This document shows, in pieces, positions 2,073-63,965 of a DNA stretch of 64,000 nt. A program made the translations under genes and the position numbers. Numbering within the stretch: the stretch's first letter is position 1; the number at the start of each line of letters is the position of its first letter. Origin of the DNA: Amphiscolops sp. MND2022 (Eukaryota). The stretch lies in NCBI GenBank assembly GCA_964187785.1, contig OZ076415.1, positions 18,910,001 through 18,974,000 of the forward strand. Direction: 5' to 3'. The notes beneath the pieces were generated by a model. It did not search any database. It worked only from the letters and a program-made list of their open reading frames with translations, and was not told the DNA's origin.

Positions 2073-4458
2073 TGTCACAGCCCGCTCCCGGTCTGGCTTG
2101 TGGTTGCCGACGGCTGAAGATAGGGAGAGGACATGGAAGCAATCTGAGATTCCCCAAATCTTATTTTAACTGGTAACTCTAAAACTTTATCTTTGAAATA
2201 AACTGTGACTAGAAATGTGAAAATACATCTAAACCGCGCAAACTTCAACTGGAAATGAAAACAGAGAACAAAATGAACCAAAATGATTTCACGCATTTCC
2301 GGTAAGACGTATTTGTCACGTCAAAATAGCAACATTCGCCACCTGGAAACTAAATTGAATTACATTCTAAAACAAAGAAAGCATGGTCTAATCTAAATGA
2401 AAACGTAGTCAAAATCATCTCCCAAAAGAACATTAATCAGATCTAAAATAGAAAATACACTGAGATGGCACACCGATTGGTTTAAGCCTTTTTCTTAGAA
2501 AGGCAGCTTAATTACTCTTTGAACAGCAATTAAAGTGGTTTAGGACGTCAATACTGCGCTGAGTAAACAAAGCGGCAAAAGAAATAAGAATACATGTATA
2601 TTTGTCGTCAGAAGGACGCAGACAAGTTTGAAGGCATACCAATTGACGTCACTGCCTCGCATACGCGTACCAGCAAATCATTCCAATTATCCGCCTATGC
2701 TAATAACATTGCTAGGAATCATTCCAATTTACCGCCACTGTGACGTCACTGCACCGGCAGCTAGCGAGAGACTCATTGCTAAAATACTCGTCAGCATTGC
2801 GTCAGACTAGTCAAAATCTCTATTCTGCCAAGAAAACTCGTCAACATGACGTTGACAAGTTTATGAGATTGAGCAAAATGGATGAATTTGCAAGATCAGT
2901 TAAGGTTTCATCGCACTAAAGTTGCTAACATGCTAAAAGAAAATGATTGCAGGCTATTTCAATTCGTAAAATAAGTGTAGATGCGGTATTCCCTATAACT
3001 TAAAGTACCAACTTAAAGTAGTTTCGACACATTCGACACATATAGAATAGTTTAATTCCACGATAATTGATCGTCTCGCAGTTATCAACTTCGAGGAAAT
3101 TCCATTACATAAATCATTTTTCCTCTATAGGAGTTCTTAGTAAAATAATCAGAAAGTCACAGTTTATGCTTTCAACTAAAGTATATTTTGTACTGAAAAT
3201 GTATTTTCATATACTTCGCATTTTTGTACTCTATGATAATGAACGCTATATTTATGACCAAGGTCATATTTTTCATACTAATTCAGTTGTTGCTATCCAT
3301 TAAATGCGTTGCGTTGTCGTTGCTATTTAACAAACGTTGCTGTTAATTTTGTAAAACTTGTCGCAGTTGTCACGACTTGACAAATTTACTAATGGTGCAT
3401 TATTTTAATACCATGTTTTTTAATTCTATTTCCAACGAAAGGATGAGTCCAAATTCATAAATTATCGTCTTAGCATCGTTCAAATAATCACGCTTTGGAA
3501 TTAGTCATAGCATTTTGATCAAGCCGAATTTCAAAATCAGGTATTTGTTGTTCACGTCAGCGTCATCTCAGCGTCAATTTCCCGCGAACCAAAGCAGTAA
3601 AACAGGGAAACATTTCCGGTTTGACAGACTGAAGTAATATCTACTTCCTGCTTGGGAGGAAGCAAAAGGACGCCGGGATGAAATGATATGATCATGTTTG
3701 ATGACTAATGCTGGTTTAAAATTGTCGTGTCCTAAAAATCGACGAAATGTCGACGCAATTTTGGGAACTTCGTGACTTTTTCATCGTTAAAACAGGAAAT
3801 GACTAATTGTTCGAGGGAAATTAGGGATTATAGTCGTGATCAAATGATGCTGGAAGGGTATAAATATAATAGGATTTGATGATTAAGGGACTCAGTCTTT
3901 TGCTAGTGCTACAACTCAGTTGTTCCAAACTTGCTATTCTCAAACTATTTTCGTTCTTCTAACCCTGTTGAAAATCAGAAAGTGAAAATTGAATTCTTCA
4001 AGAATAAATCTTTCTTCAACAATATGTCTACAACACGAAGCCAAAAGAGAAAGAATACCCAGCGAGAAGCTGATGATAACGTGAGTAAAGGTTTTGTATC
4101 ACCAATAAATATGGAGACCATGTCAAGAAAATACTAAATCGCGCATATCTCGAAGACAAACCCTACAACGACATAGTAGAATTAGCGGGTCCTTCAAGAC
4201 CTAAGTCCCCGAGGGTAGAAAATAGCTTCTTGGAAAGCATAAGGTCCTCTCTGAAGGAAGAAATAACGTCCGAGATAAGGGCTCTTTTGCTTGAGTGTCA
4301 AAAGGAAATGTTGAAACTCTTGAGATCTGAAACGAAAGAAAACGCAAGGGATGAAGCATCAGAAGAGCTAGGAAATGAAACGCGAAACCTCTATACTCCG
4401 ACAAAAACAGTGCGAATTAGTTCTACCCAAAACGAAGATCATAGTATAATTCGTAACA
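2073..4458 (+). repeat. 5' LTR of Gypsy-1 (2386 bp)
   Basis: Near-identical to 15795-18240, with TG...CA ends. Candidate TATAAA at 3859-3864 and AATAAA at 4003-4008. Confidence 0.96.
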
Positions 4459-5501
4459 TGGTGACAGGAGTTTTAAACGACTCCACCAATCAACCCAAGA
4501 GAACGAAGGCCCGATCTCAAAGTCAACCTCCGTCAAAAGAACGCCCAACAGCAGCGCGAACTTTGTTCGCCCCAGACAAAACTAGCGCCACGACATTACC
4601 CATGCCAAAAGCTCCAACAGCATCACTCCCAACTTTTGACGGGAAATCCAAAAAATTTGAGCTTTTCGAAGACCTCTTTAGGAACAACATCAAGATGTAT
4701 CCACACCTTACAGAACTACAGAAGATAAACTACTTCCACTCCCTACTTAGAGGAGACGCCCTGCAAGCCTTTTGCAACATCGAAGACTCCAAGAAAGACT
4801 CACTGGACGAGATCATGACGATATTCAAACGACGATTTGGGGACTACCTGTCAATGGCAAAGGCTAGATGTGAACGGGACGCGCTAAAATTTGATCCCTC
4901 GACACAAAAACTCCACGAGTTTCTGGATGTACTCCAGAAAACCGCAAAAGAAGCTTTTGGATCAGAAGCGCAACAATTCATAGACAAGGCTATATACGCC
5001 AAAATGCCAGACCATGTCAAGAAAATACTAAATCGCGCATATCTCGAAGACAAACCCTACAACGACATAGTACTCCATCTGGAAAGGGAAATGCATCTCA
5101 AGGGACTAGGAGCACCAGACGAGGTAACGTTAGTACCCCTGAACAAAATCGAACCCGCTCAAACAAAAACTGAGCCTAAACCAGCCAAAAACACCGCTCA
5201 GACCACCAAAAAAGGGTACTGCTTTTACTGTAATAATTTAGGACATTATAACGCTGAATGCCGAAAAATGAAAAGGGACAAATGGATGCAAACCCGCAGA
5301 AACAACGGGCCGAGCAACCACAGTGCAGGCAAACCACCCAAATGCGACACCTGCGGCAAACCACACAAAACAGAAGATTGTTGGAATGGAGCCAATGCTG
5401 CCAACGATCCACGACCCAAGCGTCACAACACACAAGAACGTAAGATGGACACCTCTGCCACACAACCAATGAACCAACCAGAAGATGAATCAAAAAACTA
5501 A
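4024..5501 (+). pseudogene. Gypsy-1 gag, starting inside the LTR; broken by an insertion at 4115-4178
   Basis: ATG 4024 (MSTTRSQKRK). The intact N-terminus is visible in the 3' LTR copy (17841-18240). ORF 4230-5501 has capsid-like LPTFDGK..FEDLF and two zinc knuckles (CFYCNNLGHYNAEC, CDTCGKPHKTEDC). Confidence 0.88.
4459..4471 (+). promoter_or_regulatory. Primer binding site of Gypsy-1, probably tRNA-Leu
   Basis: TGGTGACAGGAGT directly follows the LTR; 12/13 match to the complement of the tRNA-Leu(CAG) 3' end as I recall it (TGGTGTCAGGAGT). Confidence 0.7.
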
Positions 5502-5545
5502 TTACGCCGCGCCTGCGCTTTGGGGAAACAGTAGACGCGAGGGCG
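5492..5545 (+). promoter_or_regulatory. -1 ribosomal frameshift signal between gag and pol
   Basis: A AAA AAC (5492-5498) is in canonical phase just before the gag stop (5499-5501) and is followed by a GC-rich segment. The -1 frame is open from 5498 to 7120 (read codon by codon to the ATG at 5861, ORF track thereafter). Confidence 0.8.
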
Positions 5546-8500
5546 TATTCACCAGAAGACCCCCCTACCATATACACAACCGATACAACAACAAGATGCA
5601 CTGACACTCCAACAGAAAATTGGCTGAGACAACAAGCCAGCGCCTCCATTAAGAGACCACCATCAGAAAAAGGTCAGGAAACAACATTCCTCCAAGATCA
5701 AGATTACAGAAGCGATCATCAAAATCACACAAATCCATTTTCTCAGCCAACCACCAACACCAAGGAACTCTCTACTACAACTCAAACAGACAACAATGAA
5801 AACGCCCCCGACGACAACCCCACGTCACAAACGACCGAGGAAGTTACGCACAAAACCACCATGACATCTGCCTTCCATAACAACTTCCCCATCGCACTCA
5901 ACTCAATCAAAGAGTACATAACTGAAAGAGACGGAGATACCTACATACCTCTCCACTCAACAATAGTCCTCAAGAACAGAAGACGAATGCTTTACTTGCC
6001 ACTGGAATTTGGAGAACTAACAATGGACAGCCTCGTCGACTCAGGAGCGTTCATCAATGCCATGTCATGGTCTGATTACAACGCCATTAAAATGAACAGC
6101 GATAATTGCGTCATAAAGGAGTACCCACAACCTCCCTTCAAAATTGAATGTGCAAACGCGCAACTAGAACAACCTATCGCCACAGCTGATATCCAATTCA
6201 ATATCGGAACATACACGTTCACTGACACCTTTGTCATACTATCAAAGACCTCATTCCCCATAATTGGACTGAACTTCATGAGAAATCACCAAGCAGTGAT
6301 AGATACAGCCAATGGGACCATCACCTTCCCCCATGTCGAAATGACATTAGCCATGACAGATGAAAAGAAAAACTGTAACCCCAAACCGCTTCAAATCATG
6401 GCTGAAGGGAACCAGACACTGCCTCCACAACAAACAACAACTGTAAATGCAATAGTTATAACCACCAACGCAACCGACATCACAGGAGCAGTACAACCGC
6501 TACCACAGTTCGATGAAACAGCCACCATCATCGTCGCACCAGCACTAGCCACAGCTCACAACAAACGAATCAACCTACGAATAGCCAACTTGACAGATTT
6601 CCCGCACACCATAAAAAACCATACCAAATTGGCAGAACTGCAAATTCTGAGGCCAGAGGACACCAAACAAATACGACCTGTAGATGTTGCAACGTTGACC
6701 ACCCTACAAGACCCAGATGACACACACATATATGTAAATGAGCTCATGAAATCCACAAACAACGAACAAAATGACGAAAACCTCTGGTTCGCAACACCTG
6801 AAAACCCAGGGAACGAGGATGAACACACACCAATACAAAAGCGAATATTAAAAGAAATTAGAGAACTCATCAAGAAAGAACAACTCGACCCCACCAAAGA
6901 TCCAGATTCAAGAAAAGAGTTTGTCCACATGTTCAAATGGGAAGGATCACAAATTGAAGGCAATGACAAAAAACAATTAGAACAAACGATAGTTGAATAC
7001 AATGACATCTTTGCACGTCACAGACTCGACATTGGCATCAATGATAGCTTCAAAGTGAAGCTGACGCCAGCCAAAAGACGAACGCCCCATATACACGCAG
7101 AGCCTACCAGTACCGATTAACCTCAAAGAAGATCTAACAGTTGAACTGGCACTCATGCATAGGTACGGCAATATGCCAGTCCAGTTTTTGCACAACGTAA
7201 ACCAAATGGTAAACTACGTCTACTCGTCGACCTACGAAAAATCAATGCACTGATATCCGACGACTATATCAACAATAACCACCCAGTCAGTACCATGTCG
7301 GACGCAGCCCAACACTTAGCTGGGAAAAAGTTGTTCTGCAAATTAGATTGCTCCCAAGCATACCACTGTCTACAAATGGCAGACCAGAGATCAATTGAAA
7401 TGCTAGCGTTCAACTTCGCAAGCAGGACGTTCGCCTACAAACGACTAGCACAAGGACTGAGTAGAGCTTTATCAGCATTCTCTAGTTTCATGAGAGAATA
7501 TTTAGACAAAGTAATCAAGGCTGATCAGTGCGCGCAATACGTAGACGACATCGGAATAGCTGCAAACTCCGTGACGCAACTGATACGGAACATTCGAGCT
7601 GTCTTCGAATGCATCAGACAAGCAGGACTCAAACTATCCATCGACAAATGCCACTTTGGAGTGACCGAGGTCGAATTCCTTGGAAGAACGATCACCCCAC
7701 AAGGAATCGCCCCCAAGACCACAAAATCCAGAAATTCTTAGCAAATGTACGATTCCCGAAATCAAAGAAACAAGTACCGAGATACATAGGCTTTGTCAAC
7801 TACTACCGCAACTATATCCCGAGGTTGTCTGAGAAGCTACTCGGTTTCTACGAACTACTGAAAGCTGACAAACAAATCAAAGTCACAGAAGATCTGTTGG
7901 ATCACTACAAAGCGATCAACGCAGCGCTAGCGGAAGCATGTGGACTAGCCCTCAAACAACCAATCACAGGACGACAATACGTCTTAATGACGGATGCTAG
8001 CTTTCGTGCCTCAGGATACGCGTTAATGATCGAAGAAGAAAACGACAAAAAACTCAATTCCAAGAAGAAAACTTTTGCGCCTGTAGCATTTGGATCAAAA
8101 GTATTTTCACCAGCACAACTGAAGATGTCAATCTATTGCAAAGAATTTCTGGCAATCTACCATGCGTTCCTAGAATACAGCCACATATTGTGGGAAACAA
8201 CCCTACCAACTCTCGTAATGACAGACAACAGATCAGTAACGAGGTTCTTCCAAACAAAAGCGATTCCCCCCACGCTATGGAATGCATGTGACTATGTCCT
8301 ACAGTTCAATTTTCACATCATGCATGTAGCCGGGACGCAAAACACGGCTGCTGATTTCTTATCGAGAATTGACCTTAACCCTAAAGAAAAAGTCGAACTA
8401 AAAATCCGAAACGATATTACGATCCAACCAATACAAGTAAACCTTCAATCGACAGACGTCGCAGATGAAGAACAACTCTTTTTCCTCCCAGAGGAAACGA

Positions 8501-10411
8501 TTGAAACAGAAGAGGAAATCCTCCTACAAAAAGAACAAGCAAGACAAAATGCACGAGACGAGGAGACGACGAAAATAAAGTTGTCAATAAGAAACAACCC
8601 CAATCCCAATAAACAAGGCATCATACACCTTTGGGGCAATCAAAGAAGATGCACGCATTAGAGTTGAACAAGATTCAGATCTAGTTTTCAAAGCAATCAA
8701 AAGAAAACTGATCTGTGAAGAATACGACAAACACCTCTTACAAACAGATCTGAAAGCCAAACGCCTCTTAGTTCACGAAAATAGACTCATCGTCAAAGAC
8801 GGAGTACTAATGCGCAAATACTACGGAGAATGCGGTCAAGTTACACACAACCAAATATTAATCCCCGAACACCTGATTACAGAACTTCTGAAAGCAATCC
8901 ATGGACAAATGGGAAAACACCCAGGAATCACAAAAATGATCCAAGAATGCCGATCAAAGTACTACTACCCTGGCTTAGCAAAAAGAATCAGACAGTGGGT
9001 AATGCAATGTGAAGATTGCATTAAATACAAAAGAATCAACAATAGCCAAATCCGACCGAAGATGATCAACAACACAGAACACGTATTAGGACCAGAAGAT
9101 ATACTCGAAATCGACATATTGCCAAACCTACCAAACTCTGCAGGATACCAGAACATTGTCACAATGATCGATATATTCTCACGTTACCTATTCGCATACC
9201 CAACGCAGAATGCCACTGCGAAAACAATCGGACGATGCATCGTCGACGTCATGACCAGACATGCATATCTGCCAACTTTAATTTTGTCAGACAAAGGCTC
9301 ACAATTCAGATCAGAAGTCGTCGCAGAAATAACGCAAATCCTTGAAATTCAAATCAGCCATGCGTCCACAAAACATGCACAAACAATCGGAATTTTGGAA
9401 AGGACACACGCCTCAATCAAGACCGCACTCAAAATATCAACGGGTTAAAGACGTTCAATGTGGCACAAATACGTCCAAATTGCAGTCATGAATTACAATA
9501 CGACGTACCACGAAACCTTAGGATGTGAACCATCTACAGTATTCCACGGACGTATACCCTACAATGTTCTTGACTTAAAATTGGGCATCAAGCCAAAGTG
9601 GAAAACTATGCCCAACTCGGACATAGCAGAGCAACTACAAAAACAAATTGACGAAGTGCGGGCGACAGCGAAAGACAACATCATGCTGTCTTACCTCAAA
9701 TACAAAAAATATTACGACTGCAAAGCGTCAGCAGCTCCGCTCAAAGTCAACGACTACTGCTATATCCTCAACCCAAAAGCCGACAACCAGTCGACAAAGT
9801 TTGCGTTTCAAGATTGCATCTGGACAGGACCGTATATTGTGATAAAAATACTATCCAACAACAACTATACAATTCGAAGACTTGGCACACGATACACACA
9901 AACATTACATAGGATCAGAATACGCCCTTACGTGCCAGAACAACGACTGCCTGACGTCACAGTACGTACAAATGATTACCTTCCTGATCCGAACGTCAAA
10001 GTGTCACACAATGAGTGGTACGCGGTATCGTGGGAAATGTATTTCGGAAAACAGATTGACGAACATGAAACATTAAAAAGTACAGAAAACAATCGACACA
10101 CAGAAATACAAGAAGTGACAAATACGAACGACGAAGACACGACGTCTCAAATGCCAAGAAACCAAACTGATGACACAAATGACGAGGCGCCGCCGTCTCC
10201 GGATTTTTCAAATCTTTCTACAGAAGTGGGGGACAACCCATACATACGACGCCCCCCACCCATTGAAAGTCCACCTATTCCCCCAAGATCACCGCCTACA
10301 ACTATCGGATATAACCCGAGAAAAACAGCAAAGTATAACCTGAGACCTAATCCTAAGCCTAATGCAAATCCTGACTTCCGACGACTTGACGCTATAACTA
10401 CAACTTACTAA
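5498..10411 (+). pseudogene. Gypsy-1 pol (protease, RT, RNase H, integrase) with several frameshifts and stops
   Basis: LVDSGA protease; QYVDDIG RT; MTDASF RNase H; H-H-C-C zinc finger, LEIDIL, SDKGSQF and ERTH integrase. Pieces at 5861-7120, 7295-7741, 7528-8661, 8810-9448 and 9458-10411. Confidence 0.93.
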
Positions 10412-10660
10412 ATGAAAAGACAGTATCAGTAGTCCAAACCGAACCGGTCTGACGATTTTCAATTGCAGGCATACTACGGCCTGAACGAATATTTTTTTTC
10501 TCTACCTTTTTCTTTTCAACTGCAGCATTTGGAATATCATCCACGCCAGCATAATACAAAGATACAAAAGAAAGCAACAATTAATACAATCTACATTACA
10601 ACGTCACAACAAAGCAAGAGTACTACAATAAACATGGAAACTGTCTTAAAGTAAAAGTCA

Positions 10661-13600
10661 CTATTTCTTCGAGCTAGATTCACCACTTTTACTGGCAGAC
10701 TTTTTGGACTTCTTCTTGACCACGTTCACAGGCTCCGGTATGACTTCGAAACCACCACGAGAAGCATCTTTCTTTCGCCCAAGCAAAGACGCCAGGCTAC
10801 TGTGAACCCGCGTCTTACTCCGCCTAAATGAACTGGTATCACTTGAACTAAGCATAGGAGGGAGAGACGCAGCTGACGCAACACTATCTGACAATACTGC
10901 CGACGATACATCGTCATCGCCACCAGAACGCAAACCTGGGTTCAAAACATCAGGAGCGCAGGTCTGTTGTGAAACCTCACCCCTTTTCCGGTCGACCCGA
11001 GTTTTAAAAAGACCAGTATAACGCTTCACAAAAGCAGCCTGACCTTCACTGCAAATTCCAGTCCAGGGATCGTAGCCAGCATTTGACATAAAAGACTGCG
11101 AAGCATCAATTGCATCACGAACGTCTTTCATTGTAAACTTGGTAAAAAATGAACACAGTTTAAAATCAGAAGCAGAAACACAACTTTGCACACCACTAAT
11201 ACAGGAAGCTATCACCCACTCGGACACTTGACAGTTTGTCAGACCAAGATCCACAGAAGGGTAATCAACACGAGGTTTCAGCGCTACCAAACAACATAAC
11301 TTGAAGACGCGAACTAAACTCTTGCGGGACAAGAAACTGTAATCTGATAACAAGTATTGCTGAACATCAACAATGTCCTCTGCACTGGCCCCACAATCCT
11401 CATGCCGCCTCCGCGCATCCACAACAAAGGTCGAATACTCCTCGACAGCCGTCCTCGACTCGGAAGATGACAAACAACCACTTGACTCCAGGACCCGAAT
11501 CAATTTGCTAAACAGACCCAACATGTGACGGTCATCTCCTTCTAATAATAATTCTGGACAAAACGCATAAAGTCCTTGAGAAAAATCCCCAGTCACAGGT
11601 TGTTGACCCACAATAGCGTCCACCAGCCGGTCCATGACTTTTCGACACTGCTCGCGGAAAGTTCGCCCACTCCCGTCATTACGACCATGTAAAGTCGACC
11701 CGAACGAATGGTTTCGCAGAAAATCGTCAGGAGAAATAGAATCGAACTCGTCTACCTTCTCCGCATCCATATACTCCTCCCAATTGTGCAAGCCTGGGAG
11801 AGAACTGATTTTCCGGGTACGCGACAACAGGCAGTAGACAAACTGGCACACTTCCATGTAGAAATGAAAACAGTAGTCCATGCGTTTGGACAGCAGCTTC
11901 TTGAAGGAACAACGATCTAAACATGAAACATTTCCACCATATGTATGAAGTCAACATACCCAAAATCCCAACCTGACAGAACCCATCCAATAACATAGCA
12001 AAAGCACAACAACTTACAAAGCTCCAGGATGTGTAGAAGAAGACCCAATCGTAGCTCACCCACACCATCAGAGTACACAGCCCAGTCAGTGCATCGCATC
12101 TGCAAAAATCAAATATTCCCACTAACGTTACCAACACCACACGAGGAAAATAGAGAAAAGAACACAATCAACATGAGAAAAACAACTAAATAGCCAAATA
12201 CATTGATACTACGAACAATGGGACATAACTTACCCGGCCAGCCTCAGTTTTGATATGAAGCGGTGCACTATCTCTGATGAATTTCCGCACTAAAGCCCAC
12301 ACAGAGAGCAAATCCTTCACGACATCACATAGGTCAGAAAAGAGCACTCGTCCAGCAATCACACTCCGTCGCAGTATTGGCAAATCGTCGAACCACGACT
12401 CTTGTAGGGCACCACGCAAACGCAAAACCAGGAAATCAATCATGGTGGTCACTTCCAAACCACCAAACACCTCCTGATAAGCCAGACGGAAACAATGCAA
12501 GAAGACATCCTCGCTGAATTCCCGGAACACGACAAAGCTACGACTGTCCACTCGACTATCACTCAAGACACGTAAGAGCGTAGGACTGCCCCCATGACAA
12601 GCAAGAGGCAACTGGCAAGAAGTCGTGCTGTCAACGACACGAGACAGACCAGCTAATTCTGCTTTAGGCGCATGTTGTCCAGAGGGCTCCACCCAGACAC
12701 AGACACTCATCCAACAGTGCTCGTCCCACGTCTGTACGAAACACTTATGAGTCCTCTCATCCTCGACAAAGAACACACTGTACTCACGAAACGCAGAAAT
12801 CCGCGAAATGAGCAACCGCAATGCCCGAGGGAAAAGCGCACGGCAAATTATTGACTAAAACACAAACCAAAAATTGCATCCCAAAATGCCGAAAGTTACT
12901 CCCTATGACTTCTAGCAGACACCAACACAAAACAACCATATACAAATCAAAAGCGGAAAATAGAACAGGAAAATTAAGACTCACCAAGGATTCAGCAAGG
13001 CTCCAATTCAAACTTTAGAGGGGATTCTCTCGGCCCAAAGTCGCTCGAAAACTCCCCCAAAGACGTCGCAAGAGAGTATAGCTTCCACCCGACCGCAGCA
13101 ACTCAACCAGACAATTGATCATCGTCATCAATGGAACACTCGAATTAGCTTGAGTGCATGCTGGCAACAGATCTTCCGGGAAGCTGAACCCCTCACTTTT
13201 TCCTTTGCGAGGCCGATCACGATACTCCGACAGTTGAGCCTCAGTCAACACCATCGGGTCCATCAATCTGTTGAAAACTGGCATGTCGTTGTGCACACGA
13301 TAGGTCACGTCCAAAACCCAGTGCCGTTTACCGAAGAAGTGGCGAGCAAATTCAGCAGGGCCTCGTGACTCCATCGATACGTCTCGCTGACATATCATAC
13401 AATGGAACAACTTATCAGATCCAGTACTTGACCCACTGACGAAGAGCTCAAACACGGGGTGCCCAGAAACCATGTCGCGTCGCAACCGATTACGAGGACT
13501 GTAGGCTCGTTTTCGCCCTCGAGTGGCCCCCTCCAAAGTCGACTCCATTCTCTGTATCAACTCCTCGAATTCTATAATGGACAAAACGCAATTTCAATAC

Positions 13601-14731
13601 AAGACGACAACAAATAAACAATACAACATAGAACCTCCATATAGAGAACAATTATCAAAAAAAAAACAAAAAAAAAGAGAGAAAGGAAAACAAACAAAAA
13701 GGAGGAGGAAACGATATTACCACAAAGGAAGAGAAACAATGCTGTACGAATAACCATCAAACCATACTTACTAGCTACAAATGGATCCATGGCATGTCTC
13801 TCAGTGTCTGACTCGACAACCGGTCGCCGCCCTGGAATCAGTGATAGAGTTTTACTGGTAGTAGGTTCAGCGACTTCTTCATCTCCACTGCTGCGCACAT
13901 CGAACTGAACATGCCTACCACTGCTTTGTGACGTACCCGGACGAAGTTGCAGCAACTTTCCACACTGCCCAAATGACTTTTCTTTTTCGGGAGCGGCCAG
14001 TAAAGCTAATACACAATAGCAACCATTATTAAGCAGCACAATAAAACCGACTATGGGAAACTAACTTACATAAATCAACAACCAAAACCAACAGTCAACT
14101 CACTCACCACGTTTGGAAGCAGGAGAACTGACTCGACTGCCGAATGACTGACTGAAACCAGGCAAGAAATCACTGAACCGTGGAGAAGACGTCTTTGCAG
14201 CAACATCATCTCCTGGCGTTGTTTCTATTTGCTTGCTACTTCCTTGAAGAGGGGGGGACAGATACTCACCTCCGCGAGTCTCTGAAGCTACGGAAGAACG
14301 AATCTGCTGTGCGAGAGCTCCCAAAGTCATGTCCAAATCGTCAGACTGACAAACAACAGAGTCACTAATGACAGAACCAACTCCACCAACAGAAACCCGA
14401 GTAGGACCACTTGGGAGAGAAGTTTCCAGAGTAGAGGCGAGAACACCACCAGCAGGGGACGGAATAAATGGCCCAGAAACTGAAATAACATTCCCGTATT
14501 GACGCGTCAGAATATCTAAGCTGTGAAAATACGAAACAGAAAAGGCCTATCTGAGAGTAGTATTATTCATAAAAGCTTAATGGTCCGGGGAATGACAAAC
14601 CCACCTGTTGCCTGCCGACGAACAATATCGCCATCACTCTGGTAGATGTCTCCCTCAGAGAACACGAATTGGGTTTCATTGCCGCTCTGAGCGCCGGTGT
14701 CACGAGGGGACGGAGGAGGCTCCTGATCCAT
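10661..14731 (-). CDS. Antisense 7-exon gene inside Gypsy-1, about 1120 aa, hAT-transposase-like with BED-like zinc finger; two lesions in this copy
   Basis: Exons 14731-14605, 14515-14108, 14005-13772, 13571-12985, 12854-12234, 12099-12018 and 11972-10661. Six GT-AG introns whose phases all preserve the frame. Lesions: in-frame TAA at 13015-13017 and a 1-nt deletion near 11917-11922. FHCMICQRDVSMESRGPAEFARHFFGKRH finger at 13318-13407. Confidence 0.8.
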
Positions 14732-14784
14732 CTCAAAATAGCAGAAATCTGGAAAAGAGAGGATATGAAAACAACAATCAAAAC

Positions 14785-15080
14785 TGACGTCACCATAACG
14801 GTGACAAAAATGAAAGTTGGCTAATCACCAACGAAATTGAATCGGCATAACGTCGACAAAAAGGTTATCAGGGTTAAGAAATTAATCCTATATCCTAAAA
14901 TGACGTCATCAAAACGGTGACAAAATCAAAAGTTAGCTAAGCTAACGAAAATGACGTCAGCATAACGTTGACAAATTTGGCCAAGTAAGTTATTTCAATT
15001 TACAGCCAATAAAATGCGATGTCGACATAACGTCAACATCTGAAGATTAAAAAGGATTAAAATATTTGAACAGCCAATCA
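14785..15080. promoter_or_regulatory. Putative bidirectional internal promoter with repeated 17-bp palindromes, TGACGTCA and CCAAT boxes
   Basis: Lies between the divergent starts at 14731 (-) and 15193 (+). Five GTCnnC-N5-GnnGAC-like copies, three overlapping TGACGTCA, and two CAGCCAAT. Confidence 0.5.
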
Positions 15081-15192
15081 GAATGGAGAAAAGTTTCCAA
15101 TATTCTCCTTAACCCAAATTAAAGCAGGAGCTCATTGTGGAACAATTAAATACAAACGACAGCTGCAAAAGAAAAGAAACCTCACAAAGAAG

Positions 15193-15898
15193 ATGAATAA
15201 TTTACTAGACATTTACGAGTTGATCGACATTTCATCGTCAAGCGAAGAAGAAGGCGAGATCACAAGAGCTTCTACCCCGTTACCGAGGGCCAACAAAGAG
15301 TACCCCAGAATAATTGTCGAAATACTGAACTCGTCAGCGGAAGCTACTGCAGATGAAGAAGAATTCCTCGACCTTTCTCTAGACTCCCTGGAATCTGAAT
15401 GCAAAAGAATGAAACTCAGTGAACCCTACACGAGCTTCGAAACAGTAGAATCGGGTCAGTACCCTCAGTCGGAAAGCCCCGAAGAAATAGTAATGGCCGA
15501 CTCCCCAGAGAGCCCAGATGAAAGCTTGTCATCCGACATATTTGTTGTCGAAACATCGGCAAATGATAAGGAGTCGATAACGAGCAGTAAAGTAGCAGAA
15601 TATCTCGAAAAAGTGCACCAGGAAGACGCTTCTTCTTACTTAAACACCCCGCCGGGAACGCCAAGAGATAAATTTCTTGCAGGCAAGCCCTTTGAATGAC
15701 TTGGAGAGGAGAGTACAGACGAACATCACTACTCCAACAATCGCCTCACTGCTCAGAGCCCCGGGCAGCGTCAATCTTCTTACAAGAGCGGCCCTGTCAC
15801 AGCCCGCTCCCGGTCTGGCTTGTGGTTGCCGACGGCTGAAGATAGGGAGAGGACATGGAAGCAATCTGAGATTCCCCAAATCTTATTTTAACTGGTAA
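15193..15898 (+). CDS. Acidic, Ser/Glu-rich extra ORF of Gypsy-1 (about 234 aa after removing one inserted base), ending inside the 3' LTR
   Basis: ORF 15193-15699 and overlapping frame 15677-15898 join if one T is removed from CCCTTTGAAT. The last 104 nt lie in the LTR. Confidence 0.55.
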
Positions 15899-18240
15899 AT
15901 CTAAAACTTTATCTTTGAAATAAACTGTGACTAGAAATGTGAAAATACATCTAAACCGCGCAAACTTCAACTGGAAATGAAAACAGAGAACCAAATGAAC
16001 CAAAATGATTTCACGCATTTCCGGTAAGACGTATTTGTCACGTCAAAATAGCAACATTCGCCACCTGGAAACTAAATTGAATTACATTCTAAAACAAAGA
16101 AAGCATGGTCTAATCTAAATGAAAACGTAGTCAAAATCATCTCCCAAAAGAACATTACTCAGATCTAAAATAGAAAATACACTGAGATGGCACACCGATT
16201 GGTTTAAGCCTTTTTCTTAGAAAGGCAGCTTAATTACTCTTTGAACAGCATTTAAAGTGGTTTAGGACGTCAATACTGCGCTGAGTAAACAAAGCGGCAA
16301 AAGAAATAAGAATACATGTATATTTGTCGTCAGTAGGACGCAGACAAGTTTGAAGGCATACATATTGACGTCACTGCCTCGCATACGCGTACCAGCAAAT
16401 CATTCCAATTATCCGCCTATACTAATAACATTGCTAGGAATCATTCCAATTTACCGCCACTGTGACGTCACTGCACCGGCAGCTAGCCAGAGACTCATTT
16501 CTAAAATACTCGACAGCATTGCGTCAGACTAGTCAAAATCTCTATTCTGCCAAGAAAACTTGTCAACATGAAGTTGACAAGTTTATGAAGCTTAAATTCT
16601 GCCAAGAAAACTCGTCAACATGACGTTGACAAGTTTATGAAGCTTAAATTCTGCCAAGAAAACTCGTCAACATGACGTTGACAAGTTTATGAGATTGAGC
16701 AAAATGAATGAATTTGCAAGATCAGTTAAGGTTTCATCGCACTAAAGTTGCTAACATGCTAAAAGAAAATGATTGCAGGCTATTTCAATTCGTAAAATAA
16801 GTGTAGATGCGGTATTCCCTATAACTTAAAGTACCAACTTAAAGTAGTTTCGACACATATAGGATAGTTTAATTCCACGATAATTGATCGTCTCGCAGTT
16901 ATCAACTTCGAGGAAATTCCATTACATAAATCATTTTTCCTCTATAGGAGTTCATAGTAAAACAATCAGAAAGTCACAGTTTATGCTTTCAACTAAAGTA
17001 TATTTTGTACTGAAAATGTATTTTCATATACTTCGCATTTTTGTACTCTATGTTATTGAACGCTATATTTATGACAAAGGTCATATTTTTCATACTAATT
17101 CAGTTGTTGCTATCCATTAAATGCGTTGCGTTGTCGTTGCTATTTAACAAACGTTGCTGTTAATTTTGTAAAACTTGTCGCAGTTGTCACGACTTGACAA
17201 ATTTACTAATGGTGCATTATTTTAATACCATGTTTTTTAATTCTATTTCCAACGAAAGGATGAGTCCAAATTCATAAATTATCGTCTTAGCATCGTTCAA
17301 ATAATCACTCTTTGGAATTAGTCATAGCATTTTGATCAAGCCGATATTCAAAATCAAGTATTTGTTGTTCACGTCAGCGTCATCTCAGCGTCAATTTCCC
17401 GCGAACCAAAGCAGTAAAACAGGGAAACATTTCCGGTTTGACAGACTGAAGTAATATCTACTTCCTAGTTGGGAGGAAGCAAAAGGACGCCGGGATGAAA
17501 TGATATGATCATGTTTGATGACTAATGCTAGTTTAAAATTGTCGTGTCTTAAAAATCGACGAAATGTCGACGCAAATTTGGGAACTTCGTGACTTTTTCA
17601 TCGATAAAACAGGAAATGACTAATTGTTCGAGGGAAATTAGGGATTATAGTCGTGATCAAATGATGCTGGGAGGGTATAAATATAATAGGATTTGATGAT
17701 TGAGGGACTCAGTCTTTTGCTAGTGCTACAACTCAGTTGTTCCAAACTTGCTATTCTCAAACTATTTTCGTTCTTCTAACCCTGTTGAAAATCAGAAAGT
17801 GAAAATTGAATTCTTCAAGAATAAATCTTTCTTCAACAATATGTCTACAACACGAAGCCAAAAGAGAAAGAATACCCAGCGAGAAGCTGATGATAACGTA
17901 AGTGAAGGTTTTGTATCACCAATAAATATGGAGAACTCTTGCCTTTTAGACCAAAACGTAGAATTAGCGGGTCCTTCAAGACCTAAGTCCCCGAGGGTAG
18001 AAAATAGCTTCTTGGAAAGCATAAGGTCCTCTCTGAAGGAAGAAATAACGCCCGAGATTAGGGCTCTTTTGCTCGAGTCTCAAAAGGAAATGTTGAAACT
18101 CTTGAGATCTGAAACGAAAGAAAACGCAAGGGATGAAGCATCAGAAGAGCTAGGAAATGAAACGCGAAACCTCTATACTCCGACGAAAACAGTGCGAATT
18201 AGTTCTACCCAAAACGAAGATCATAGTATAATTCGTAACA
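15795..18240 (+). repeat. 3' LTR of Gypsy-1 (2446 bp)
   Basis: Matches the 5' LTR. Has a 52-bp unit in three copies (16544-16692) versus one copy in the 5' LTR, and retains the uninterrupted gag N-terminus. Confidence 0.96.
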
Positions 18241-18245
18241 CAGGA

Positions 18246-19715
18246 TTACTCCAAGATACCATGAATCGCTTTGAAAAAGACAAGAACAAAAATAGCTTCC
18301 TGAAATCTCGAACAAGACATCTGTTTTTGTGATGTAGGCGCTAGAAGCTGCAATGAGGACTCCACAATGTTGACCTTTTGGCCTATCACTTCTGGAGATT
18401 ACATTGTAAGGAAGGTTGGAAAACAACGACTTGTTTTCAACAGAAGAATCGAGCCAGGTTTCTGTGAGGCAAATCAGAGTGGGGTTATTGATAGCCAAAA
18501 GTTTGCTGAGTCTGAGTCGTTTTTCAGGTGTCAAAATGCTCTATGCATTGAAGAGAAAAATTTTGAATTGAGACTGAGGTTCTAGTCAAGTTACCTCCGA
18601 AACATGACCATTTTTGATTCTATAACTTTTTCGAGGATTCTCGGCCTGTAGTCGACGTTTTTCTTCTCTTAGTTTAAACTGCATTTCACGCTCAGACTTA
18701 GTGAGATCAGGTTGGATGTATACGTTTTTGAAATTGAGAGATTCTCGCAGCTTTTTTGCCCTTTGAAGCAAGGCTTTTCGATGTTCACCTGAGTTGAACT
18801 TAATTTGTAGAATTTGAAATCCTGTTTCAGCATGAGCATTGCCAATTCGTCGGGTAATAAAGTCTTTCTCAGCTATTTTGACTTCGAGCTCGGTGCAAAT
18901 CGAAGTTACTAATTGCATGTCAGAGACAGAGCCGTCACCTTTGGTCCCCGTGAGGATCAGGTTTGAGCTTTTCTGTTCAATTATTTTCTGTTCCGATAAC
19001 AATTCCTTAGCAGTCTGAGTACGCGAGCAATTTTCTTCCTTCAGGCTTTTACCAAGGCAGCTGCATAAGAATGTTTATTCTGAAGAGGTGGTGATGCAAG
19101 CAGAAGCCGCAGACGAACTTTTTGTTGCTCGTATCATAGTCAGAAGGAACATTTATTTTAGTCCAAACTGGACAGTTATCATTTGAACACTCAATCAATT
19201 TATCAACAAAGACAATCTCCTCGTCCTTTTTGTTGGTTTTCTTTTTACGCGCAATAGTTTTTCCAACTCCAGTGGAACTTGAACAAGAACCTTTGGAAGT
19301 AAGACAAAGCAAAAGCTTGAAAATCCGGTGGAACTTAAAAAAGAACCTTTGGAATCTCAAGCTTGAAACTTATAGATCTTGAACAAGAATCTTTGGAAAT
19401 TAAGAGGGCGAATGCTCAACTTTTCAAAGCCCAACAATCACAAGTACAGTTTCCCGTGCAGTTGAAAATAGTAAGATGACCAGCTTTGTCAACTTCTGAG
19501 ATGTAGTTGCCGTATAAAATTTTGTTCTTCAGGATAGATTTCACACAGCTCAGTGCTTGGCTGTTGAGGTGGACTTGATCACACTTGAGATGCTTCTGAT
19601 CATAAATGTGTTTCGCTGAGCCCCGGAAGAGCCAAGGTTTCACTGCTGCAGTGCGATTGAAGTAATTCAATCGCGGAGTCAAACCGATGTCAAGGCATGT
19701 CACGGTTGTGGATGA
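18246..19715 (-). mobile_element. LINE-A 5' part: endonuclease N-terminus, ORF1 (PHD-like and RRM-like) and C-terminus of an upstream SGNH esterase ORF
   Basis: ICLTETWLD..RSDR APE motifs (18246-18534); ORF1 SSNLILTG..VYIQPDLTKSER (18586-19002); Cys-rich CSNDNC..CGFC (19049-19360); DQVHLN esterase block (19416-19703). Confidence 0.88.
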
Positions 19716-20288: not shown

Positions 20289-20758
20289 AATTGCTAGATT
20301 TCCACTTCACGACGAGCAATGTTAAACATTGTGATAATAATGCTGTAATTTGTAAATTTTCTTCCGCTTACCAGTTTTTTCAACATTTTTTATATGGAAC
20401 CGTTATTGACACTGCAAGGAAGCTCTGCACCTTGCAGCATATTCGATATCCTCTTCGATTCTTTCCGATTCGAGCTTGTTTTAACAACGGGCTCTTTTCG
20501 TATTCGTCCCAACATGAAAAATGGGTTCCAGTACGCACGGTCCCTTTTACGTTTTTGGAATAAACGAGAATTTTAGTTTAAATTCAATGTATTAGGATGG
20601 CGAATTAGCGTGTCTTGGCTGAAGACGTAATTCCCGCTTGCCTTTTAACATGGTATACACGGCACCAGAATAATTACGACGATCTGTGTCGTCTGTTAGA
20701 AAGTTGATTTGAAGTTTCATTGTTTCCCCACTGATCTTCAGTTGGTAATGTTTTCAAG

Positions 20759-23700
20759 ATGAATGGCGAGGCTGATCTCCATACAACCCCTGAAACACGG
20801 TGCTTGCCTAATATCTTGATTTGTGGTACCCCTGGTACTGGTAAAAGTACTTTGTCGCAAGCATTAGTAGAGTCTATTGGAAATGATGAATTCAAATATT
20901 GCAACGTGGGACAAATCGCGTCGGAGAATTCTTGTTTTGATGAATGGGATGATCAGTATGAATGTCACGTTTTGAACGAAGATTTGCTGTTGGATGAAAT
21001 GGAGCCCATGATGCACCCCGGAGGTTATCTTTTTGCACCTCAAGACAATTCTAATTTATGTATTATGCAAAGTGATGTTCAGAATATTGATATCGAAACT
21101 TCTGTTGATCCTTGGGTAGTTGTTTGCGTTGGGCGGAGCTGATGTAAAAGGTACTGTATTTCGAATCACTGAGACTACGGTAGTCTTGGCATTATGGCTT
21201 TTACTACTACTTCACTTTTTAATCGGACAGTTTTCTCAACTAGCAGATACTTGGTCTGGTTGCCCGGACTTCTTTTCGCTATTTTAGCTCGCTATCACCG
21301 TACTGTGGACCGGTCACAAAGTTTTTCCTAGAGCTCGAGTCTCCACTGCTTGAGGTTACAACGGGCCCAAGCTACTTGAGGCTCACCAATTTTCTGATTT
21401 GGCTCACCAAAAAATCGTACAGTGGAAGGACTCTGTATTTTTGATCTGGAAGAACTCTGCTTACGGAATAAAAATGGGCTAGGTTGTCATATGACATACA
21501 GAGTCTCTTTAAAATGATATATCTAAATTATTATCAATTTTGAATGATGATGATGATGATGACAATAGATGATTAGGTTTATCCTAATTTATGGTACAGT
21601 CAAAGGTTTGTTCGTATCCGCTTAATTATTGATATGGTTATCAGTATAGATATTGGTCTATAATTTTCAATATATGATTTATTACCTTTTTTGTTCACTT
21701 GGCTAATTTGGGATTGTTTCCAAATTTCGGGGAAGTTGATGTTTGTTTAATCTTGTAGAGTACTTGACTAAGAGATTCAGCAATTGTCGTTGCAATAGAA
21801 CGTTGAGGTATGTCGTCTGGACCGTTGGCTTTCTTTATATCTAAATGCTGACAAATGTTACTGATAGTTGTTTCTGATAGAGAGAGAGAAAGACTTTATT
21901 CTCATAGAGAAACCAAAAACAATTTAGCTAATACTTTTAAACAAAACACAATTCGAACAAGTACATACTATATAATAGGTACAAACAACGTCAATAGAGA
22001 ATGTTTTATTCAACAGAAATTTTTTAACAGCTGTTTCATCGCTCTTTTGAAATCCACTTATTATTTTGTGTCGGAAAAGGTAATTGGCCATAATCGCGCT
22101 CCTCGTGAAGAAAGAGTTCAGATTGCTCGAGAGGGTATTGGTCTTGAAAAAATTGAATGAGCATATTCGTCGCTGGTTGGTTGAGTCGTTAACGAGAAGA
22201 AATTTCCTGTAATCATATTGGTATTTATTGTTCATCAGTTGAGATAAAAAGATGAACGTTCTTAGCTCAATAAGGTGACAAATGGGAAGAATGGAGTGAT
22301 TTTTCAGTAGCTGTTGATAAGAGGTTTTGGTACCAAAAATCCATTTGAAGCATTGCTTTTGAAAATTTTCCATTATTTTCAAACGAGTTATATCGGGTGA
22401 CCAAGATGGGATCCCATATAAAAGAACAGATAACACTTGTGAGAAATAAAGGTTGAATTTTTTCTCTGATGGGGTTTGCCATGGAATCTTTTGCTTCAAT
22501 GAATAAAAACTCCTTTGGGCTTTTGCAACTCTCATCTGCACAGAATCCGTCCATTTAAGGCTATGACTAACAATGATTCCCAGATCCTTTGTATACTCAA
22601 CTTTTTTTAACAGACAGTCATTCATAGTAACAGAGGTTAACCCCTGAAATTTAAACAATTAGTTTTCCCGAGATTGGCAATCATTCCATTTGATAAGTTC
22701 CAATTGTAGAGACGTGTCAGGTCATTGTGGAAATTCAGTGAGGAGAAAAGGAGCTTAAGATCATCGGCAAACAACCAGATCATAGCGTCGAGAAAAATAC
22801 TCGGAAGGTCATTGATAAATATAAGAAAGAAAAATGGTCCTAGAACTGACCCTTGAGGGACTCCACTAGGTACTGACAGATGTTCGGAAAAATAGCCGTT
22901 CACATTGACAACTTGGGTTCTCCCATTAAGATAAGTTTCAAAAAGCAGGAGGAGCTCTGAATCAAACCCAAAGAGCTTCAGTTTAGATAATAAAATCTTA
23001 TGAGGGACTTTATCAAACGCTTTTTCGTAATCCAAATAGACAGAGAAAAGGGTGCTAGATTTATTGCGATACAGTGTTTCCAGATAGTCTATTAATTGAA
23101 GTACAGCATTTTTCCGAGATTGAAAGCCAAATTGTTTAGGGTGAAGTTGAGCTTTGCACAATCCAAAAAGATAAACGAAAAGCAGCCGTTCAAAAATTAA
23201 GATTTTTGACAATAAACTGATGGGACGGTAGTTTTCAATGCTGGCCTTGGATAAGCTTTTGTGCAAGGGTCTGATAAAGGCAACTTTCCATAATGCGGGG
23301 AAGATTTTGCAGCCAGTAATAGAGTAAAAAAGATACGCAAGAAGATCAGCAAACATTTGTGGAACCATTTTCAATAACTGACATGGAAAATAATCATTGG
23401 TGGGATAAGTTGACAATTTGATTCTCATTCTTTCAATCAGGATAAGATGTGGTCGAATAGAAAATTTGAAATCCTTGAGACTTATGAACTCCGAAGATGA
23501 ATATGCAACGCCAGTATAAGAACCGGTGTTGAAATTTTTTGCAAAGAACTTATTAAAACCGTTTGCAATATCGACAGGATTTTCAAGGCGTTCTTGGTCA
23601 AAGAACATAATCTTTGGATAGTCAGAGGACTTTAAACTTCTCAGCAGGTCGAAACAATCGGAGAGATTAGAAGTCATTGAACCATTAATGAAACAGATCT

Positions 23701-26700
23701 TATCCATTTCGGAAAACTCTCGGAACTCAATTTCCAATTCAGAAAGTCGAGAGATTGGTTTTAGATGGGTTTCGGGCAATTTTTCTTCTCATCGTGTTGA
23801 ACTTATTCAAAGTATGCATCGTTAGTGAGCTGTAGAAAAAAGGGTTAGCTGTACGTTTCCTTCGTTTCTGCTTGAAGTTTGTTTTAACACTGGACCAAAG
23901 GAATTCTTAGAACCTAGTTACGTCGTTAGTATTAGGTGAGTCTTCAAAGGCAAAAAACTTCCAAGAACCCAAAAACTTTTCCAGATGTTGAGCTTGATTG
24001 AAACAGTATTGGGTCGGTTGCTTAGTGTTAATGGGTAAAACTCTGGAGTCAATTCTCAATATAATTGAATAATGATAGCTTAACTGAAGGTCTCTGCGCA
24101 CCTGACAGTATACAAAAGCACCATCTGAGGTTGTCAGGATGTTACCAAGAGTGTTTCCCAGTTTATGCGTAGGGGTATCACGAATAAGTGGTTCAAGGGA
24201 AAAATCGCGAAAGACATTTACAACTTCCTGTTCTATTTGAACAGAACAAGTCATTGAGTGCCAGTTACAAGATGGCAGATTGAAATCGCCTACGAGGAAG
24301 TAAGTAACGTTTGAGTAAATTTGGTTAGTCCTGAGTTGACAGTTTTGAAAAGTTCAAGTCGCTCTGGTATGACTCTGTAATCGCTTGTTCTCGGTGGCAG
24401 ATAAACACAGATGAAGGCAAAGGCATGAGATGAGTTCTCCACGACGAAGCAGACGCCAAAAAATTGGTCTAATTTGATAATTATTTCTTTGGAAATCACG
24501 TTGCTAACTTTTCTCTGAAGAACTACTACCCCACCGTGTTGGCCGTCAGGCCTGTCAACCCTGGTTACTACCTCAAACTGTCCAAAGAGTAAAATTTTCA
24601 CTGAGAGTTTTGGTGTCTAGCCAGGTTTCGGTTAATATAACTATTTCAATATCATTAAGCATAAGGTAGTTAAGTAAAGTCAGTTGCTTTCTGATTGGAT
24701 TAATGGATTGAACGTTAAGGTGCAGGATTTGTGTTTTTGATTGTCAATGGGTAGTATTTTGGATCGTTGTATTGTTTTTGAGTTTTTCGTATAGTATGGA
24801 CAAGTTATCCATTTCTCCAGGGTCAATGTGTACACCGTTGTGGAATAACTTCAGATCTCTTATGCTCAAAGAATCTCGATTTAATCCAAGCTGAATCAGC
24901 TCATATCGTTTACTTAGCAGATCTTTCTCTTTAATCCGATCCTTCCAGCTGAGTTTTGGTTTAACGAAGATCTTAGTGCCTTTCAGAAGGAAAGCGTTGC
25001 TCAATGTTATGCGGCGATCATAGCTGGAAGTTAACTGGATCTCAACGGGACGTGGTCTAGCGGTTGATTCTGGCTTGAATTTACCGAGTCTTGAGAGGTT
25101 CTTTATTCTAGAAGGGGCGATTTTCAGTTTCTCACAAAAAGTTTGCACATTTGGATCTTCATGGGGGTAGAAGATTCTGGAATGTTGTACAGAACAATGG
25201 TTTCTTGAGCTTTGCTATCATAGTCACGTTCATCAAGGGTTTTCTTTATAGCGTCTGCATACAATAGAGGTTGATTTGAATTTGTAATTTGTCTATCGGT
25301 TTCAGAAGTGGCCAGTTTTTGTTCAATGGGCTTCACTGTTTGTGCTGTTTCAGACAACACTCCTCCAAATTGCTTTTTACATTCACCCAATTGCGACAGA
25401 GATTCTCGAAGCAAACACTCGAGAGTAGATTTTTTTTGCTTTAGACGTGAAGGTTTGTATCTCATTTGGGCTCAGTGTTAAAATTTCACTGATAGTAGGA
25501 TAGTAGTCGGGTGTTGATAATATACGCGAGCGAGGTTCACCCATATTTCAAAGAGATAAATGGTCCAAGATTGTGAACAAGGGGAGAAAAGAATAATACA
25601 GTACTAGAATTAGCAACCTGTGGTACCTACAGGAGACCTGCGGATGCTTACCTAGTATGTAGAATGGAGAAATAAACAGTATTAGATATAGCAACCTGTG
25701 GTACCTACAAGAGGAGACCTGCGGATGCTTACCTAATAAGTGCAGTTGCAGTTTCTGTATTGACACTCGAAAACACGTCTGTATCCCTTCTGGCCGGTAG
25801 TTGTAGTTTTATCGTAGAGAACCTTGTTTTTTAAGACTGATTGAATAGCTCTGCGGCCTTCTTGACTTAAATGAATTGAGTCTGTTCCAGTATGGTAATC
25901 GTTGTAAATTTTATCGGATAGACCCCGATACTTCCACGATTTCGTTTCGGCCAGTCTTTGAATTTCAGAGTTAACAGCGGATGCTCGTTTTCGATAAGAA
26001 CCACGATGGGGGACACCAAGTACAAATACTGAATTTGCTAGCTTACACAGGGAATCGGCAAGATTACCAAGTTCTTTAGCAATGTCGGCAGGCAACACAG
26101 TCGATGGCACTTGATAGTCGTAAGTGTCGTTTCCGCCAATGAATATTACGATAATTTTGTATCGATCCTTCGATGGATAGAAGTTTTCGTTGATATTTCC
26201 GATACGAGCTCCTGGGACTGACAAAATATTGAATTTATCAAATCCAAGATCTCTTGCTTGGGAATCGGCAATTAATAAGTTGTTTGACCTAGAATCCTTG
26301 AAAGTATGAAATCGTCTCAGCATAGGCATAGGGGATAACCACGGTTATCCCAGAAAATCAAACTAATCTGAAACTATTTAAGAAGATAGATCGATAGAAG
26401 ATAGATTTAAGATAGATCGAAGTCATCAGTCGTGTCCACAAGTGCAGTTCGGGGCAAAATAGTTCTAACTCTGGAAGTTGTAAAAATCGAAGCAAAGTCT
26501 TGAGAAAATAGTTCAGATTGTGTTGCAGGATCATTGGCGTATTCATCTTTAAAAAACATTGACGTTGGGGTTTTCGATTACTTAAAGAATCGTAAATTTC
26601 TGTCTGTAGAATTTAAATAGTAATAGGCTTCAATTTACCCCTTGGGGAGTTTACACAAGAAGAGATATAGATTTACAGATGGAGAAATAAGTAAAAAGAA

Positions 26701-34879: not shown

Positions 34880-34892
34880 TAAGTTTTTCTAA

Positions 34893-48711: not shown

Positions 48712-49489
48712 TCACATTCCGCAATGCTAGGTGTTCAGTTTCACTGGTTTTTCTGATAACCAGAATATAAAATTTCACTCACTTCATTCAAGAACTCATT
48801 AGTTGAAAGAACAGTATGTGTGAAGGAACACTCAAAAGGTAGAGTCATAATGGCATACAATTGTATGCAATTATGAAGGATTATGAAGGTTTTAATTGAA
48901 TTTAAAATGGTTCAAAATGGTATATGAAACGTGTTCAACTGGAACAGTGCTCAACTCCAGTTGACTCGGTTTTCCATATTATCTCAACTAATCAAAAGGC
49001 GCTAATCCGATTACCTTTATGTAATACAAGTACGATGTTACATCAAAAATAACAATAAACTGTTTCCGTTGTCAGAAATCTTAGAATTCTTTAAAAGATC
49101 TTGGCGGGATCATGCAATTCTTTTTTCGATATTTTCATGTCTTTTTGACAATTTTCAGAGATTTTTTTGTTGATGGGATTGTATTCTCGATATCTCGAAA
49201 TACAGATAAATCATTTGAGTTTTTCTTGGTTGCATTCGAAATTTCAGCTGCTGCGGAAGCTTTTGCAGGGATTTCCGTTAGAATTATAGGGATTACATTT
49301 TCCCCATACTTTGTTCATTGTAGGGTCTTTTCTCCAAAAGTTATGTGCTTTGATTTCTTTCAAAGCAGTGACTTGCTGTCATAATTTTCCAAGCTGCAGG
49401 GAAGTTTACTAAGATTCTACAATGCATGCACTCTGAATTTTTTGTTTCATAGAAAGTTTTCAGCATGAATCCACAGAGCATGTTAAAAG
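48712..49489. repeat. 778-bp direct duplication flanking Gypsy-2 (left copy)
   Basis: Matches 55556-55961 plus about 56696-57062. Confidence 0.9.
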
Positions 49490-49741
49490 AATAATGAACA
49501 ACAGACAAATTTAGATTAACTGTTGATAAACAATCCGTTGCTATTTTTAGTTACCATTTGTTATTGTTGTTTACTAACGACTACGTAGTTTTCTAGAATA
49601 CCCAGCTTTCATTACGATAAACTTTTGCTCTAGAGAAAACATTGGTTCATACAAACTTTTGTATTACAAGTCTAGTTCGCAGTATGCAACATGGCGCAGC
49701 CAACAATCTGAACTTACAGAAAACAAGAAACTGCGAAAAAA

Positions 49742-58037: not shown

Positions 58038-63965
<5,928 letters not shown>

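Follow-up and report, generated by a model that had tools for sequence, protein, structure and literature searches.

The DNA analysed here, a 64,000-nucleotide window of the Amphiscolops sp. MND2022 assembly GCA_964187785.1 (contig OZ076415.1, positions 18,910,001 to 18,974,000, forward strand), contains a 16,168-bp Ty3/Gypsy retrotransposon (2073-18240, ends TGTCAC...GTAACA) with two divergently oriented accessory genes between pol and its 3' long terminal repeat (LTR). The element is flanked by an exact target-site duplication (TSD), CAGGA, at 2068-2072 and 18241-18245. Its 5' LTR (2073-4458; 2,386 bp, TG...CA) includes the first ~134 codons of gag, and its 3' LTR (15795-18240; 2,446 bp) contains a tandem expansion of 104 bp that the 5' copy lacks. 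The gag gene (4024-5501, ATG at 4024) thus starts inside the LTR; its open frame in this copy, 4089-5501, spans the inner LTR boundary and reads through a putative primer-binding site (PBS), TGGTGACAGGAGT (4459-4471), which we take to resemble the 3' end of tRNA-Leu; no tRNA genes were found in the window. Pfam assigns DUF1759 to Gag, with weaker matches to Retrotrans_gag and two CCHC knuckles. Gag ends at an A-AAA-AAC run and pol (5489-10411) continues in the -1 frame, suggesting ribosomal frameshifting between them. In Pfam searches pol encodes protease (PR), reverse transcriptase (RT), RNase H (RH) and integrase (IN); this PR-RT-RH-IN order, the TG...CA LTRs, the short TSD and the PBS are features of Ty3/Gypsy elements (clade names follow the relevant part of PMC6238403), and the best PDB matches of the RT are the foamy-virus and Ty3 enzymes. 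Between the end of pol and the 3' LTR lie 5,383 bp, so that a preliminary description of this locus, which had reported the total length, exact TSD and LTR ends and two divergent genes in about 5.4 kb, is confirmed.

The larger accessory gene lies on the minus strand (10661-14731), antisense to pol. When diverged subfamilies are aligned, conserved blocks alternate with variable gaps that are rich in T and edged by GT and AG on that strand, a pattern that predicts seven exons: exon 1 at 14731-14605, with its ATG at 14731; exon 2 at 14515-14108; exon 3 at 14005-13772; exon 4 at 12985-13571; exon 5 at 12854-12234; exon 6 at 12099-12018; and exon 7 at 11916-10661. Joined, they give 3,315 nt in frame, or 1,104 codons, broken in the window copy by one premature stop at codon 442; the other five reading frames carry many stops. 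The predicted protein has an acidic, Ser-rich, low-complexity N-terminus, a zinc finger, a conserved core of ~700 amino acids and a basic tail, and is best conserved in exon 4, where the finger, C-x2-C-x16-H-x5-H, is invariant.

Splicing of this gene is a prediction from DNA sequence, and the splice sites are strongly conserved. Across 40 aligned sequences (39 loci and the window; L037, heavily broken, was omitted), 233 of 234 introns start with GT and 230 of 234 end with AG, and exons 4-6 are constant in length while the introns vary. Intron 6 is missing to the base in six of the 40, all from one subfamily. A sister lineage has exons 4-7 as a single open reading frame (ORF) of 870-918 amino acids in 13 of 15 loci, and a profile built from that lineage only matches exons 4, 5 and 7 of the window at consecutive positions (40-224, 226-426 and 463-861); a third lineage has a break at the exon 4/5 position. 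The antisense gene is under purifying selection: among eight representatives, most cross-subfamily synonymous distances (dS) are saturated, and where they are not, the ratio of nonsynonymous to synonymous substitution (dN/dS) is 0.015-0.076 in exon 4, 0.04-0.15 in exon 5 and 0.07-0.31 in exon 7.

The second accessory gene (15193-15898, plus strand) starts at a conserved ATG and ends 104 nt inside the 3' LTR. In open copies it encodes an acidic, Ser/Pro-rich product of 232-247 amino acids, whose basic C-x-C...H-x-C tail is encoded within the LTR. The sense gene is also under purifying selection, the proportion of nonsynonymous differences (pN) being below that of synonymous differences (pS) in 28 of 28 pairs over the whole ORF and in 27 of 28 over the 34 LTR-encoded codons. 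Reading frames had been said to cross both inner LTR boundaries; this holds for gag, while the sense gene of the window copy is frameshifted and stops at 15697-15699, 95 nt short of the 3' LTR, although the frame runs into the LTR in 30 of 35 evaluable copies (six of 41 could not be evaluated). The earlier statement that no env-like ORF is evident stands: no accessory ORF has an env-like Pfam match, and the sense ORF, with no Pfam match of any kind, is short, acidic and hydrophilic, its alignment showing no hydrophobic stretch, unlike the env of errantivirus-like elements, a sense third ORF with signal peptide and transmembrane helix. The largest 19-residue hydrophobicity mean in antisense exons 2, 4, 5 and 7 is below 1.4. 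In the sister lineage (L076-L090) the sense gene has no tblastn match to that of the window; in the five of its 15 loci that reach the LTR, it enters the same TGTCACA LTR start in the same frame (L-S-Q-P).

This layout is lineage-wide, not specific to one copy. At 23 other loci, 5,100 or more of the 5,401 bases of the pol-to-LTR region are matched at 90-99% identity (29 scored of 2,006 candidates), and the last antisense exon alone has 7,480 candidates, with identity bands near 90, 66 and 60% among the 98 scored. A profile of the antisense protein matched 542 protein clusters at E values up to 0.001, of which 150 were listed and ten proteins looked up, all unnamed ENA sequences; a word-index search for longer exon-7 relatives was negative. 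One cluster member (P0099, 890 amino acids) pointed to the sister lineage in the same genome, where the gene is antisense to a Gypsy pol in all 15 loci taken from 51 listed matches and the RT is 73-78% identical to that of the window; the third lineage has the same arrangement in all 16 loci taken from 124 matches. Over the three lineages RTs are 73-96% identical to the window RT, and accessory proteins fall to 25-50%. The preliminary description had proposed that the element may be a distinct lineage with an accessory module of its own, to be abandoned were the layout unique to this copy; with 23 other near-full copies, two further lineages and selection on both genes, the proposal is upheld as regards the layout.

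The family has been active recently, as indicated by low LTR mismatch and intact TSDs: a pair of LTRs was found in 19 of 20 further copies, with 0.13-2.9% mismatch, and an exact 5-bp TSD was readable in 11 of the 20. Every one of the 18 copies with a located primer site has a gag frame that spans the inner LTR boundary, and 12 have their first Met 397-400 nt inside the LTR. The window copy itself is dead, all four genes being broken. Its pol is interrupted by a stop at 9446-9448 and shifts frame near 7.1, 7.7 and 8.6 kb, and the start of gag in the 5' LTR is rearranged, 4108-4178 having been replaced and the frame shifted. The replacing 71-nt piece, present in the 5' LTR only, is identical to gag 5011-5081; gene conversion, or a template switch within the element, apparently produced this patch, which raises the apparent divergence of the LTRs. 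Of 2,342 aligned LTR sites, 52 differ (Kimura two-parameter distance 0.023), 35 of these lying outside the patch; the dating suggested earlier yields this distance. These differences are transversion-rich (20 transitions, 32 transversions; 2073-4458 against 15795-18240), and CpG is not depleted in the element or its flanks. The element is inserted in a long interspersed nuclear element (LINE) on the minus strand (flanks 375-2072 and 18241-18540), whose left flank has Pfam matches to Exo_endo_phos_2 endonuclease and RT, and whose right-flank ORF, without a Pfam match, resembles by eye the N-terminal part of that endonuclease.

The accessory genes and pol have not always travelled together. Relative to the window, one locus (L022) is 96% identical in integrase and 72% in exon 4, another (L017) is 86% identical in integrase and 97% in exon 4, and a third uncoupled pair shares 96.5% in integrase and 71% in the cassette. 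Sense-gene identities follow yet another pattern, and the cassette tree differs from the pol tree (an internal integrase tree; 47 of 56 loci were kept and 8 dropped as their matches were too short). These identities are uncoupled, so that parts of the element recombine between co-existing lineages, and the cassette has, on this comparison, evidently been swapped between pol lineages. Template switching during reverse transcription would account for such moves.

Discordant trees, together with the many broken copies, are also what might be expected if the cassette were a passenger, whether a nested DNA transposon or a transduced host gene, that brings the element no benefit. Both genes are, however, constrained, the antisense gene up to the saturation of dS; all 70 loci whose surroundings were inspected carry the gene antisense to pol, and in none is it free-standing; no inverted repeat of at least 40 nt occurs within the element; and the sense gene is built into LTR sequence. 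We regard a passenger cassette as largely refuted and very improbable.

The two start codons face away from a conserved, CRE-rich spacer (14780-15150), the best-conserved non-coding block, which contains three copies of TGACGTCA and two of ACGTYGACAA and is a candidate bidirectional promoter. Both motifs are common to the spacer and the LTRs, and in the 64-kb window all eight occurrences of TGACGTCA and all five of ACGTYGACAA fall inside the element (shuffle means 1.0 and 0.4); TGACGTCA also occurs in 14 of 16 third-lineage loci. A second signal, the palindrome GACGCGTC (14501-14508), lies within antisense intron 1 or at its end and is found in 40 of 41 loci of the window's lineage, 14 of 15 of the sister and 12 of 16 of the third. 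It may serve as a site of RNA dimerisation or protein binding. The polypurine tract next to the 3' LTR is poor, with only ACAAGAGCGGCCC in front of the LTR; a purine/G run lies 1.5 kb upstream. This run (14245-14259, plus strand), ending in G5-12 inside antisense exon 2, is present in 37 of 40 copies of the window's lineage and may be an internal polypurine tract; many copies are frameshifted by variation in its length.

We propose, at a probability of roughly 0.6, that this is a Ty3/Gypsy element with an exchangeable two-gene cassette, likely under one internal two-way promoter and likely regulating the element's own transcription or chromatin. A single promoter in the spacer would drive both accessory genes; the zinc-finger protein would bind element DNA, the motifs common to spacer and LTRs being candidate targets; and the sense protein may be a small nuclear activator or adaptor. 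Introns could survive in such an element because the packaged plus-strand RNA lacks splice signals for the antisense gene, so that reverse transcription copies them, with occasional losses occurring through spliced antisense cDNA. Several observations weigh against this proposal. The seven-exon frame is open in just eight of 40 copies (first splice set), and exons 4-7 in 26 of 40. The acceptor of intron 1 is ambiguous, with an in-phase site 36-45 nt downstream in 39 of 40 copies (about 36 nt further on in exon 2 of the window). The spacer motifs were chosen after the sequence had been inspected, and both are absent from the five sister-lineage loci checked, which rules them out as a universal target.

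The palindrome and its surroundings could instead indicate that the large protein acts on RNA or particles in the manner of Rev: it would bind genomic RNA, for instance at the palindrome or the purine run, and assist an unusually long genome in its export, its dimerisation, its packaging or its entry into the nucleus. GACGCGTC, inside the antisense gene, is the sole non-A-rich 8-mer of the pol-to-LTR region present in at least 85% of both lineages tested (the window's and the sister); intron 1 is more conserved between subfamilies (77-93% identity) than the exons (38-80%); and the protein ends in basic tails. The region folds no better than shuffled sequence, however (z -0.86), GACGCGTC is not in a hairpin loop of the predicted fold, and the nearest named Atlas leads for the finger, although at just 0.82-0.84 and so under the 0.9 threshold, are the DNA-binding BED and Spin-doc. 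We consider an RNA or particle role unlikely, and favour the regulatory cassette.

Judged by eye, the antisense protein has a C2H2 finger near its N-terminus, then a helical region, three predicted strands and a long helical remainder, an order that resembles hAT transposases such as Hermes and Kat1, for which a BED finger, DDE triad, CxxH, Trp and insertion domain are described in the relevant part of PMC4763223. No DDE triad or CxxH was seen by eye in the antisense protein, and on a by-eye alignment, which leaves the positions provisional, V/M/A/F and G stand where hAT would have its two aspartates; the element has no terminal inverted repeats. Sequence homology to hAT was not found: Pfam, PDB profiles and hhalign gave chance-level results, as did our own profile against host hAT proteins, and neither Dimer_Tnp_hAT nor other hAT homology emerged, the sensitivity of these comparisons being limited by their targets, which were individual host sequences or a mixed alignment of 13 rows. 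These results count against hAT descent. The invariant finger has no Pfam BED match, and its Atlas lead to BED and Spin-doc fingers is the one piece of support that a tool gave for a hAT origin. Single-exon structure models were of low confidence (mean predicted local distance difference test scores of 38 and 47), and fold searches with them gave nothing above background in PDB and viral sets (best Z 6.1 and 4.6) and no E under 0.001 in further searches, by which an unlisted family is not excluded. Assignment of exon 7 to RabGAP-TBC (Atlas 0.87) was rejected as below the lead threshold, with low recognition. Searches of the same genome for PF14291 and PF18658 found no match, the controls being likewise silent.

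A degenerate pattern built from a hAT motif gave eight matches against 15 for its control, three of the eight belonging to one hAT family, which did not match the antisense-protein profile and of which no relatives were found in metagenome or viral contigs. L116-L121 represent a hAT family of the host, present in low copy number, that has D, TRW and E motifs and includes derivatives with internal deletions. Descent of the antisense protein from a hAT transposase that lost catalysis stands, in our judgement, at about even odds. The fuller scenario, that the retrotransposon clade domesticated a catalytically dead hAT transposase, backwards and with introns, added a small activator and made of them a two-way, swappable cassette to control the element or protect it against silencing by the host, we offer tentatively, as somewhat less probable than its converse. 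A still-active nuclease or transposase-like enzyme, aiding integration or targeting, might be suspected from the long, strongly conserved core and from twelve acidic positions conserved to 85% or more across the family alignment. The same protein, however, lacks a DDE-family match in any library and, on the by-eye alignment, the hAT aspartates, and the element already encodes an integrase, of which its 5-bp TSDs are typical; an active enzyme is therefore improbable.

Antisense ORFs occur at the same place in plant Retand, Grande and RIRE2 and in fungal Boty elements, their origin and function being stated as unknown (PMC7264820). The antisense ORF between pol and 3' LTR that marks Retand/Tat aORF-3R is present here, and Retand/Tat elements (maize Grande gene23, rice RIRE2, Silene Retand) share a long pol-to-LTR region (2.9-6.6 kb in Retand), conserved antisense coding and lack of env, as far as the relevant sections describe (PMC7264820; PMC11963269). 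Grande gene23 is antisense, with its own promoter and a nuclear product (PMC7264820); its proposed regulatory role would by analogy resemble the one proposed here. The window element differs in encoding ~1,100 amino acids with a C2H2 finger and six predicted introns, in a second, divergent sense gene that ends inside the LTR, and in a gag start about 400 nt inside the 5' LTR; its accessory proteins have no Pfam match to the Retand/Tat TRP28 (PF04195), and the main text of PMC11963269 never uses the word "intron". Boty brtn of Botrytis/Sclerotinia is likewise an antisense extra gene at this place in a non-plant Gypsy; compared by description only, it differs in size and has no reported divergent partner (PMC7264820).

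Complex retroviruses also carry accessory genes 3' of pol that are antisense or overlap the 3' LTR. Foamy viruses use an internal promoter and have genes that extend into the 3' LTR. The window element differs from complex retroviruses in lacking env and any homology, and in one spacer apparently serving both directions; HTLV-1 HBZ is an antisense accessory gene of such a virus (PMC11963269, in the section on it). Ogre and Burro are alike in long LTRs and extra coding capacity but reach 16-25 kb and over 30 kb, respectively, in the part of PMC6431247 that treats them, so that the label "giant" fits the 16,168 bp found here only modestly; in our 16-kb element the extra genes are divergent and 3' of pol, with no giant polyprotein and no env. 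A literature search, with subscription journals and Repbase outside its scope, found no description of this layout or of a hAT-derived antisense gene in Gypsy. Antisense ORFs as such were already known; new here is the combination of an antisense gene of 1,100 amino acids, with several predicted introns, and a divergent partner that is integrated into LTR sequence.

Elsewhere the window holds a second, unrelated Gypsy element (about 48712-56990; gag-PR, RT-RH and IN by Pfam) with LTR-like repeats and an extra 272-amino-acid sense ORF (54503-55318) without a Pfam match. At about 34880-42430 a unit of about 2.5-2.7 kb occurs three times in tandem, its copies being 97-100% alike, and nested inverted and direct repeats cluster at 58250-60220, resembling a miniature inverted-repeat transposable element or a foldback element. 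A GDSL/SGNH hydrolase-like ORF (25736-26344, minus strand) lies beside LINE RT fragments. Pieces of host genes occur at 20735-21142 (a P-loop kinase exon, AAA_18, which we take to be adenylate-kinase-6-like) and at 60996-62222 (Hsp90).

We suggest that this large, young and diverse family offers a way into the question of antisense extra ORFs in LTR retrotransposons. It provides a long, alignable protein, natural gain or loss of introns, two conserved cis-signals and swaps of the cassette, and the origin and function of such ORFs are therefore testable. It shows how an element replicated through RNA can keep a multi-intron gene. If the antisense protein were indeed a transposase stripped of its activity, a mobile element of one class would have tamed the enzyme of another for its own regulation.

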